Source: an uncultured bacterium (GTDB lineage: Bacteria > Patescibacteriota > Minisyncoccia > Moranbacterales > GWC2-37-73). Taken from it: 64,000 bases of DNA. Positions 32,422 through 34,989 of this stretch are shown piece by piece. The stretch lies in assembly GCA_903837175.1 (NCBI GenBank), contig CAILTR010000055.1, forward strand, positions 819 through 64,818. Direction: 5' to 3'. Made by a program: the position numbers and the translations under genes. The stretch's first letter is position 1, and the number at the start of each line of letters is the position of its first letter. The notes beneath the pieces are model-generated. The model worked only from the letters and a program-made list of their open reading frames with translations, was not told the DNA's origin and made no database searches.

Positions 32422-32600
32422 ATTTGATTTATTTAAATTAGAATAAAAAATAAAGGTTGTTAGTTAATAATTTTATCTTGCATGAAAGGAAAAGAGGACA
32501 TTTATTAACGAGATGTTCTTTTTGCTTTTTGTGCTAAGTTATGAGAATAGGTGTTATTCCGTTTTGGCATATTACAAGTTGGAATATATTATGAAAATAT

Positions 32601-32822
32601 ATGAGAAATGAAATTTATTCAAATGGTCATAGGTTTTTAACGCAACAGTTAAAGAAGGCACGAGAAAATTCTGGCTTTAGTCAGAAAGATGTTGCTGAGC
32701 TTTTAACTAAAACTCAATCTTATGTTTCCAAGATTGAGGCGGGGCAACGTCGTATCGATGTAATTCAATTACAAGAATTTGCAAAAATTTATAGAAAGAA
32801 GATTAATTTTTTTATTAAGTAA
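32601..32822 (+). CDS. XRE-family HTH protein. It is a controller (C)-like regulator of the R-M cassette.
   Basis: 'GFSQKDVAELLTKTQSYVSKIEAGQRRIDVIQLQEFAKIY'. It is 73 aa and sits immediately upstream of the small nuclease candidate. Confidence 0.65.
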   Translation: MRNEIYSNGHRFLTQQLKKARENSGFSQKDVAELLTKTQSYVSKIEAGQRRIDVIQLQEFAKIYRKKINFFIK

Positions 32823-32826
32823 ATTT

Positions 32827-33273
32827 ATGTGGGCAAAAAATCTAACTAAGATTAATGATGGAATTTTTAGGACTATTAATGGTAATTCCGATGAAATGAT
32901 AGGCGTCGGAAGGTGCATGAAGGCAGGTTTTCCATGTTCTCGGGCAGATGTAACTAACGGGAGATATGATGCCATTATTGATGTGGGTAATAACAAGTTA
33001 CTAAGAGTTCAAATAAAAGGAACATCTGGTGGAAGCGTTAGTTTTACGGGTGGAGGAAGAAGTGGAAAGCAAATCAGTAGAACAGTTAAACAACGGACAT
33101 ATCGATATTCTCCGGATGATTGTGATTTAATTCTGGTCGTAGATGGAAGAAGTGGGGAATGTTATATTATTCCAATTGAAGATATTCAACAAATGAGTAA
33201 TTCAAAGTCACTCGATAAACTGAGTAAATATAAAGAAAATTGGGATATTCTGAAAACGATGGCAGGAATCTAA
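32827..33273 (+). CDS. Candidate small restriction endonuclease (PD-(D/E)xK-like). Alternatively, a toxin partner of the XRE protein.
   Basis: 148 aa, translationally coupled to the XRE gene. The possible motif is 'YDAIIDV...LLRVQIKG' (D...QxK). It converges on, and overlaps by 4 nt, the methyltransferase gene. Confidence 0.35.
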   Translation: MWAKNLTKINDGIFRTINGNSDEMIGVGRCMKAGFPCSRADVTNGRYDAIIDVGNNKLLRVQIKGTSGGSVSFTGGGRSGKQISRTVKQRTYRYSPDDCDLILVVDGRSGECYIIPIEDIQQMSNSKSLDKLSKYKENWDILKTMAGI

Positions 33274-34835
33274 TTTAGAGCTTTTTTTATTTCTCTTGCA
33301 ACTGCCTCTAGAACAGTTACGGTTACGGAGTTTCCAGCTTGCTTGTAAAGCGCGGAGTCAGCTAAATTTGGAAGCTCAAAATCTCTCGGGAAACCTTGTA
33401 GCCTGAAACATTCAATCGGCGTTAGTTTTCTGATCCCATGCCTATCTTTTATAATTGGAACATTATGTCCTCCCATCCCCATGTTGGCAGTGAGCGTTGG
33501 GCAGACACCTTTTTTATTTTCTCTAACATATTGTCTTCGCCATTGGTAAACCTTACCTTCTTGCGTAACAAAATCTTTAAGTTTTTCGAAAAGAGGCTTA
33601 CCATTATAATAATATTTTTCAGGCACTTTTTGCTCAAGTAGATCAGTAACTTTTATTGATAATTTTTGTGGTTCGGGAAACTTAAATTTGTCTGTGTAAT
33701 TTTTATTTTTAAATCCTATGATATATATCCTTTCGCGATTTTGAGGAATATTTCCATACTCCATACTATTTAAAACCTTAGTTTTTACATGATAACCCAA
33801 GTCTTCCAGGGTTTTGATAATTATTTTAAAAGTTTTTCCTCCGTCATGTCCTTTTAGGTTTTTTACATTTTCCAGTAGAAACCCTGCCGGATTGCGAGCT
33901 TCTAGAATTCTAGCAACATCGAAAAATAAATTACCGCGGTCTTTTTCATCATTAAACCCCTTGCGGTATCCAGCTATAGAGAAAGCTTGGCAGGGAAATC
34001 CTCCCAAGAGAAAGTCGAATTCCGGAAGATCTTCAATGCCAATTTTGCGGATATCCTCTACGACAAGTTTTGATTTTTTGAAATTTAAATCGTAAGTAGT
34101 CTTACAATTTTTTTCAAAGTCATTCGCAAAGACAGTTTCAAAGCCAGCTTTTTCAAAACCAAGTCTAATACCCCCGACGCCAGCAAATAAGTCCAGGGTT
34201 CGGAAAAGTTTTTGATCTGTTTTGCTGCTGTTTTCAAGATTTCTTTTTATCTCAACAACTACGCCTCTAATTTCAACCTCCTTTCTATAAATGGGAAGCA
34301 TTGTTTGGTTAGCTGGTTGCAATCTAAATCGATTTTTTTCTCGATAAATCTTTTTTAGAGTAGCTTCATTATCATCAATTATCGCAACGACAGTTTGTCC
34401 ATTTTCGGCGACGGATTGTTTTTTAATAACGACAATGTCACCATCAAAGATTCCTTCATCAATCATGCTATTTCCCTGAACTTGTAGTGCATAATAATTG
34501 CCAGCTTTATTTACGGCGCTTGTCGCAATCATCACAGTTTCTCCTCTAGTTTCGATAGCTTCAATGGGTTGCCCAGCGGCGATGGTTCCGATTAACGGTA
34601 TCTTAATGAGATTGTAGGGGTTCCTTTTTTTAAGTTCGATACCTCTAGCAGAACTGCCATTTTTTTCTATAAATCCTTTTTTTTCTAAAGTTTCAATATG
34701 TTGATGCACGGTTGAAATAGCAGAAAGTTTGAAATGTTTTCTGATTTCTTCAATAGTTGGAGAAAAAGTTTTTTTATTAATAAACAAGGTTATAAAATCT
34801 AGGATTTGTTTTTGTTTTTTTGTTAGGGTTGGCAT
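33270..34835 (-). CDS. LexA repressor (wHTH plus S24 peptidase) fused in-frame to a C5 cytosine-specific DNA methyltransferase.
   Basis: The N-terminal ~205 aa align along LexA: 'LTKKQKQILDFI', 'SSARGIEL', the 'IAAGQP' Ala-Gly cleavage site, the nucleophile Ser in 'VQGNSM', the general-base Lys in 'VVIKKQ', and 'VVAIIDD'. The C-terminal ~315 aa carry Dcm motifs I 'DLFAGVGG', IV 'GGFPCQAFSIAG' and 'ENVKNL'. There is no stop or start between the two parts. Confidence 0.8.
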   Translation of the reverse strand: MPTLTKKQKQILDFITLFINKKTFSPTIEEIRKHFKLSAISTVHQHIETLEKKGFIEKNGSSARGIELKKRNPYNLIKIPLIGTIAAGQPIEAIETRGETVMIATSAVNKAGNYYALQVQGNSMIDEGIFDGDIVVIKKQSVAENGQTVVAIIDDNEATLKKIYREKNRFRLQPANQTMLPIYRKEVEIRGVVVEIKRNLENSSKTDQKLFRTLDLFAGVGGIRLGFEKAGFETVFANDFEKNCKTTYDLNFKKSKLVVEDIRKIGIEDLPEFDFLLGGFPCQAFSIAGYRKGFNDEKDRGNLFFDVARILEARNPAGFLLENVKNLKGHDGGKTFKIIIKTLEDLGYHVKTKVLNSMEYGNIPQNRERIYIIGFKNKNYTDKFKFPEPQKLSIKVTDLLEQKVPEKYYYNGKPLFEKLKDFVTQEGKVYQWRRQYVRENKKGVCPTLTANMGMGGHNVPIIKDRHGIRKLTPIECFRLQGFPRDFELPNLADSALYKQAGNSVTVTVLEAVAREIKKALN

Positions 34836-34989
34836 AAGCTTTATTTGATATAAGTTTGTTAATATTTATATTATATACCGAAAATTTACCGAAGTGCAAA
34901 CAACTATTTTTAAAACTTAAAATAGCCTATAAGAAAGCCAAAAAATGCTTTAATTGAAAAATTACTTTTTCTGAAATTTTAATTAGCGA

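Follow-up and report, generated by a model that had tools for sequence, protein, structure and literature searches.

The locus described here raises the question of whether three adjacent genes, encoding a small XRE-type helix-turn-helix protein, a 148-aa protein (R148) and a C5-cytosine methyltransferase, constitute a restriction-modification (R-M) system and, if so, how it is controlled. The genes lie in a 64,000-nt (64-kb) stretch of DNA, hereafter the window, and form a small anti-phage cassette of an uncultured Patescibacteria (CPR) bacterium. Its layout is ordinary and two of its parts are unusual: the nuclease is very small and comes from a family so far not listed among restriction enzymes, and the methylase is fused to a LexA protein. 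The cassette is likely to be a Type II R-M system, with R148 as the endonuclease cognate to the methylase, the XRE protein as controller and a methylase autoregulated through its LexA module.

The open reading frames are exactly as an earlier note on this DNA described them (Table 1). The R148 and methylase genes run tail-to-tail, with stop codons that share 4 nt at 33270-33273 (cTAa, with TAG on the other strand). The XRE stop codon lies 4 nt before the R148 ATG without overlap, and no Shine-Dalgarno sequence is seen by eye for either gene; translational coupling of the two is for these reasons plausible at most. The cassette is flanked by glycosyltransferase and PMT-family genes, which agrees with its proposed location in a glycosylation island. 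A recent insertion there is not demonstrable, as a 93% identical relative carries the cassette at the same place, and its GC content is not distinct from the surroundings.

Table 1. Position of the cassette genes, protein domains and predicted regulatory elements in the window.
Feature	Position	Strand	Description
C-box-like operator block	32556-32587	+	Two TGG(C/A)ATAT boxes, upstream of XRE gene
Sigma-70-type C-R promoter	32564-32592	+	TTGGCA, 17 nt, TATTAT; predicted
XRE gene	32601-32822	+	73 aa
R148, restriction endonuclease candidate	32827-33273	+	148 aa, PD-(D/E)xK fold, PDDEXK_5
LexA-C5-cytosine methyltransferase fusion gene	33270-34835	-	521 aa
C5-cytosine methyltransferase domain	33282-34205	-	aa 211-518; PF00145 at 3.8e-94
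S24 autopeptidase/dimerisation domain	34254-34598	-	aa 80-194; PF00717 at 3.2e-30
LexA winged-helix DNA-binding domain	34641-34835	-	aa 1-65; PF01726 at 6.9e-16
Methylase promoter	34870-34899	-	-35 TTGCAC (34894-34899), 18-nt spacer, -10 TATAAT (34870-34875); predicted, conserved across loci
Putative methylase operator	34876-34893	-	Direct repeat TTCGGTAAATTTTCGGTA: TTCGGTA twice, period 11

R148 had been regarded as unplaceable in any known family, but it matches Pfam PF11645 (PDDEXK_5) at 30.3 bits, above the gathering score of 26.1, and is unrecognised only as a restriction enzyme. This is its only Pfam match at E-values up to 1. Structure prediction, proposed earlier as a check, returned a nuclease fold: the top structural match of the AF2 model (pLDDT 75.9) is I-Ssp6803I (PDB 2OST), at 19% identity, the founder of PDDEXK_5. 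Both the profile score and the fold place R148 in this family. In the model E23 lies in helix 21-32, D48 precedes strand 49-54 and Q62-I-K64 sits in strand 57-66, with E23, D48, Q62 and K64 as the catalytic candidates. D48, Q62 and K64 are invariant among 25 R148 homologues, so the D...QxK PD-(D/E)xK-like core guessed in the earlier note was correct; the peptide 'YDAIIDVGNNKLLRVQIKG' is found in R148. R148 is not matched by the RE_Bsp6I HMM (PF09504) and has neither the fold nor the HMM match of Vsr. It is probably a homo-oligomer. Two observations count against a restriction enzyme: after I-Ssp6803I its nearest structural relatives are Holliday-junction resolvases, and at 66-100% identity across CPR classes it is unusually conserved for such an enzyme. 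Among the comparisons with solved structures only that of folds was informative, as phmmer and family-profile searches with R148 gave chance matches only, such as haemagglutinin tags.

The genomic company of R148 argues for a restriction enzyme. An R148 homologue adjoins the same C5-methylase, convergently, in all 19 loci from reference genomes (GTDB), and across these loci the two proteins vary in parallel in their identity to the window copies. Only these 19 of the species genomes scanned contain the R148 partner. The adjacent pair also occurs in three further orders: R-then-M (locus L064), divergent (L042) and M-then-R (two viral/phage contigs). A gene with a nuclease fold is thus co-inherited with the methylase, as in Type II R-M systems. 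At locus L021 the nuclease gene is decayed beside an intact methylase, a pattern expected of a restriction gene.

Sister loci with LexA-Dcm genes carry other convergent genes in the R148 slot. Those of L028 and L032, encoding proteins of 187-190 aa, match Pfam RE_Bsp6I at 43 and 56 bits (cutoff 25); the L030 slot holds a gene of the same size (187 aa), the RE_Bsp6I scan having covered L028 and L032. Further partners of 299, 323, 279 and 347 aa have no Pfam match, and those of 299, 323 and 279 aa no PDB match either; they are nuclease candidates by position only. In the loci examined the LexA-methylase fusion always lies beside a convergent nuclease-type partner. Loci L028-L032, L042 and L064 were by-catch of a metagenome scan with the methylase alignment, which used generic Dcm motifs and contained at least five more fusions among the 80 loci listed. 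The fusion methylase seems to be common across Patescibacteria and to have at least six nuclease partners that can replace one another. It had been argued that a methylase widely found without R148 would weaken the R-M reading. The methylase is indeed found without it, yet this supports the R-M reading, because the genes that take its position encode further candidate restriction enzymes.

The methylase domain has complete catalytic motifs, as expected of a Type II R-M system, with PCQ, ENV, QNRER (QxRxR) and GNSV invariant in the homologue alignment. It most probably modifies cytosine-5 in GCNGC. Its target-recognition region (TRD, ~aa 429-470) is of the GCNGC type. Its closest counterparts among plasmid methylases show 52-56% identity overall and up to 81% in the TRD core, and their neighbouring genes carry the annotation 'Bsp6I family type II restriction endonuclease'. 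In the TRD core, identity is 81-93% with methylases that have a Bsp6I-family partner and also 81-88% with those that have an NgoFVII-like one, and so the core cannot separate GCNGC from GCSGC. No palindrome in the window is depleted more strongly than GCNGC (ratio 0.58, z -5.7), which has ratios of 0.66-0.69 in other loci with the system vs. 0.89 in unrelated Dcm loci; GGCC and GATC are depleted too, and the k-mer control is weak, its comparison set being free of CPR genomes that lack the system. The replacement of R148 by Bsp6I-family genes, the Bsp6I-type TRD core and this depletion together make GCNGC the predicted target, such that R148 would cut unmethylated copies of the site that the methylase protects. 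M.HhaI, the methylase's top match among solved structures, is misleading as a guide to the target, as GCGC is not depleted (ratio 1.01) and the TRD cores are 36% identical.

The XRE protein is a candidate controller (C) protein. It matches HTH_3 (2.8e-13), the solved C proteins C.BclI (3.5e-5) and C.AhdI (2e-3) and the PADLOC model 'Control_protein' (1.3e-6), and its gene has the position of a C gene, directly upstream of R. The boxes of the operator block (32565-32572 and 32580-32587) lie 15 bp apart, with partial dyad symmetry (ATTCCGTTTTGGCAT and ATTACAAGTTGGAAT); the symmetry is weak evidence, as the window contains six comparable abutting pairs. The block is near-identical in the window, L111, L003, L004 and L014 and recognisable in L013 and L029, and the DNA further upstream is unrelated. 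A putative binding site is thus conserved at the XRE gene's own promoter in seven loci with unrelated flanks. This promoter agrees with the consensus at 10 of 12 positions, is among the best-scoring sites of the region and ends 8 nt before the ATG, for which reason the C-R mRNA probably carries no leader, or only a very short one. The XRE protein may bind the block, which overlaps its own promoter, and this control would delay and limit R148 expression from the short-leader transcript.

An AATATAT repeat previously placed at 32584-32600 does exist, with copies at 32583-32589 and 32596-32602. Its proposed role as a C-box is rejected, as the 24 occurrences in the window vs. 19 expected by chance give the repeat no significance in itself. 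Only the first copy falls in the conserved element, and the second overlaps the XRE start codon. The postulated C-R operon converging on M has fared better, given the resemblance to C proteins, the conserved operator and the constant pairing of R148 with the methylase. The generality of the controller is limited, as the XRE gene is present in six of 21 distinct loci and missing upstream of the nuclease in 15 of the 19 reference loci. An AbrB-type gene takes its place in L005, and XRE copies 65% (L029) and 56% (L030) identical to that of the window precede different nuclease candidates.

The 521-aa fusion matches LexA_DNA_bind, Peptidase_S24 and DNA_methylase, an arrangement found in at least 120 homologue clusters, and exceeds the cutoff of TIGR00498 (lexA) at 183.6 vs. 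110.95 bits. That the methylase is a fusion to a full LexA was under-weighted in the first reading of the sequence, and no report of LexA-methylase fusions was found in the literature searched. The LexA module can be aligned with E. coli LexA over its full length, starting at residue 1. The S24 domain contains an Ala87-Gly88 cleavage site (nt 34572-34577), Ser123 and Lys161, which align with A84-G85, S119 and K156 of E. coli LexA. Across 20 fusions G88, S123 and K161 never vary, and A87 is kept in at least 90%. With winged helix, Ala-Gly site and Ser/Lys dyad all in place, the module is apparently self-cleaving. Unfused relatives retain lexA by the methylase, as a lexA-vsr-M operon (L011), as lexA-bro-M (L010) or divergently (L018).

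The direct repeat TTCGGTAAATTTTCGGTA fills the whole 18-nt spacer between the -35 and -10 of the methylase promoter, which a consensus scanner omitted because its -35 matches only three of six positions. A 7-mer repeat of period 11 is present in 20 of 26 such promoters, and the repeat unit changes with the DNA-binding domain. We infer from this co-variation and from the position of the repeat that the LexA module binds TTCGGTAAATTTTCGGTA and represses its own synthesis. LexA boxes that are direct repeats are known (PMC9578287, PMC8565304), and PMC7739468 cites them for Patescibacteria. The operator occurs once in the 64-kb window, at the methylase's own promoter, and likewise once per locus at every fused gene; no second copy was found in the window or in the ~10-kb loci. 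A LexA motif of Patescibacteria was reportedly described by Sanchez-Osuna et al. in 2017.

This arrangement would allow the fusion to act as a damage-sensing homeostat. The LexA module would dimerise on the spacer repeat and keep methylase levels low. Damaged DNA, for example after breakage by the system's own nuclease, might then provoke a RecA filament and RecA-stimulated self-cleavage of the fusion at Ala87-Gly88. Release of the DNA-binding domain would raise methylase synthesis and re-protect the genome, a protective feedback. The trigger could be self-restriction where sites are left unmethylated, following replication stress or the system's entry into a new cell. Cleavage could occur, as the Ala-Gly site and Ser/Lys dyad are intact and invariant, and the methylase is possibly derepressed by damage; no recA lies in the 64-kb window. 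The homeostat as a whole is the most tentative part of the scheme, and we consider it somewhat more likely to be wrong than right. In other loci, a DnaA-box-like element conserved upstream of most fused-methylase promoters could additionally tie methylase synthesis to replication. No DnaA box is present near the promoter in this window, where counts of TGTGGATAA with one mismatch are at chance level.

The fusion may instead be a housekeeping SOS repressor with a genome-wide regulon, in which the methylase is a passenger or has an epigenetic or repair role and the nuclease is only loosely connected. We regard this as unlikely. NCBI names homologues of the fusion simply 'transcriptional repressor LexA', the module is a full-length LexA with all functional residues, and no other lexA was found in the 64-kb window. 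In the unfused loci L010 and L011 the promoter of the lexA by the methylase is built in the same way, and this gene could be the sole lexA there. The loci L007, L011, L018, L023 and L029 have vsr repair genes alongside the methylase. Against this reading, the operator occurs only at the module's own promoter in the 64-kb window and once per locus in the others, and L014 encodes a second, stand-alone LexA (30% identical) 1 kb away. The fusion is also sporadic, with the nuclease partner in only those 19 scanned species genomes, and its convergent nuclease-type partner is always present. A role as SOS repressor is, in any case, compatible with the R-M reading and not exclusive of it.

The same vsr genes bear on an improbable reading of R148 as a repair or recombination nuclease, either an Hjc-like resolvase or a Vsr analogue for T:G mismatches from 5mC deamination, co-regulated with a LexA-controlled methylase. 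High conservation across CPR classes and the tie between methylase and SOS system would fit such a role. It is contradicted by genuine vsr genes (Pfam Vsr) beside R148 or its methylase in those five loci, by the Bsp6I-family restriction enzymes in the same slot of sister loci, by a regulator that, where present, resembles the C proteins that control toxic nucleases, and by the decayed nuclease of L021 beside an intact methylase. The absence of XRE from 15 of 19 nuclease-bearing reference loci, when the methylase is absent from none, likewise makes it highly improbable that XRE and R148 are a toxin-antitoxin or abortive-infection pair beside an orphan methylase, as the earlier note had offered as an alternative. 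Obligate co-occurrence, a mark of Type II toxin-antitoxin systems, is lacking, an AbrB-type gene can replace XRE, nuclease candidates of other kinds are found behind the same XRE, and the nuclease-methylase pair is kept through four gene orders. Only the placement of a small HTH gene 4 nt before that of a small nuclease and a weak likeness of XRE to HipB/MqsA-type antitoxin models, far below cutoffs, point the other way. NCBI's product name for R148 homologues, 'group I intron-associated PD-(D/E)XK endonuclease', implies a homing endonuclease of a mobile intron, and I-Ssp6803I, the best structural match and a member of the same Pfam family, is such an enzyme. This is barely credible for R148, as no Rfam RNA family of any kind reaches threshold anywhere in the window, and hence no group I intron is found there; the gene is free-standing between two protein-coding genes and always paired with a methylase. 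Neither phmmer nor the family profile detects I-Ssp6803I at its 19% identity. The toxin-antitoxin, homing-endonuclease and Vsr-like readings are therefore rejected, and a Type II R-M system is preferred.

If R148 is the restriction enzyme of such a system, it would represent a family recognised by neither PADLOC models nor NCBI product names and, at 148 aa, be among the smallest restriction enzymes. It would also be the second or third unrelated type of protein to read GCNGC, and connect a homing-endonuclease fold with an ordinary restriction enzyme. Restriction-gene turnover around a fixed methylase has a clean natural example here, in that at least six nucleases have been swapped beside one conserved methylase. 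The fusion suggests a new regulatory principle for R-M systems, a methylase that is enzyme, autorepressor and possibly a RecA-cleavable damage sensor; the homeostat, if real, would be the first case of an R-M system that its own methylase couples directly to the SOS signal. Patescibacteria are largely without CRISPR and rely on R-M systems, and the balance of self-protection and defence thus matters for their biology and genetic tractability. A practical consequence would be to pre-methylate DNA at GCNGC.

In Esp1396I, a C-R operon is convergent with M, and the cassette resembles this and PvuII-type systems in its small XRE-type C gene directly upstream of R, an operator overlapping the C-R promoter, a probably very short leader and a small, PvuII-like REase; convergence of R and M is shared with Esp1396I. 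The C protein of Esp1396I represses the M promoter too, whereas the M promoter in the window has a LexA-type operator and no visible C-box-like sequence. The C gene is also optional across the window's family. C5-methylases of the SsoII/Ecl18kI/EcoRII/MspI type have an N-terminal autoregulatory DNA-binding region (references in PMC3874152). The fusion shares with them an N-terminal DNA-binding domain, an operator at its own promoter and, putatively, autorepression without a separate regulator. It differs in that its module is a complete LexA of ~200 aa (winged helix, Ala-Gly hinge, S24 peptidase/dimerisation domain), which adds a potential damage-triggered off-switch, and in that its operator is a period-11 direct repeat and not a palindrome.

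The nuclease can be compared with three further groups. I-Ssp6803I is an intron-encoded tetramer recognising a 23-bp pseudo-palindrome (PMC3384342), whereas the distantly related R148 is free-standing, methylase-paired and has a predicted 5-bp site. The BisI family (NhoI, Eco15I) comprises orphan, 5mC-dependent GCNGC cutters that need methylated sites (PMC11347163). R148 has no detectable sequence similarity to them and must prefer unmethylated DNA, because next to a GCNGC methylase an enzyme that cuts methylated sites would kill the cell. The third group comprises the Bsp6I/Fnu4HI systems (GC^NGC, C5-methylase), which have a methylase of the same clade with the same predicted target and small nucleases, the Bsp6I-family proteins found here being 174-190 aa. 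The exact slot of R148 is held by a Bsp6I-family gene in CPR sister loci. In Firmicutes these systems are arranged R then M in the same direction with an unfused methylase, whereas here the genes converge and the methylase bears LexA. As R148 matches only PDDEXK_5 and not RE_Bsp6I, it would be an isoschizomer of Bsp6I/Fnu4HI drawn from an unrelated, I-Ssp6803I-like family.

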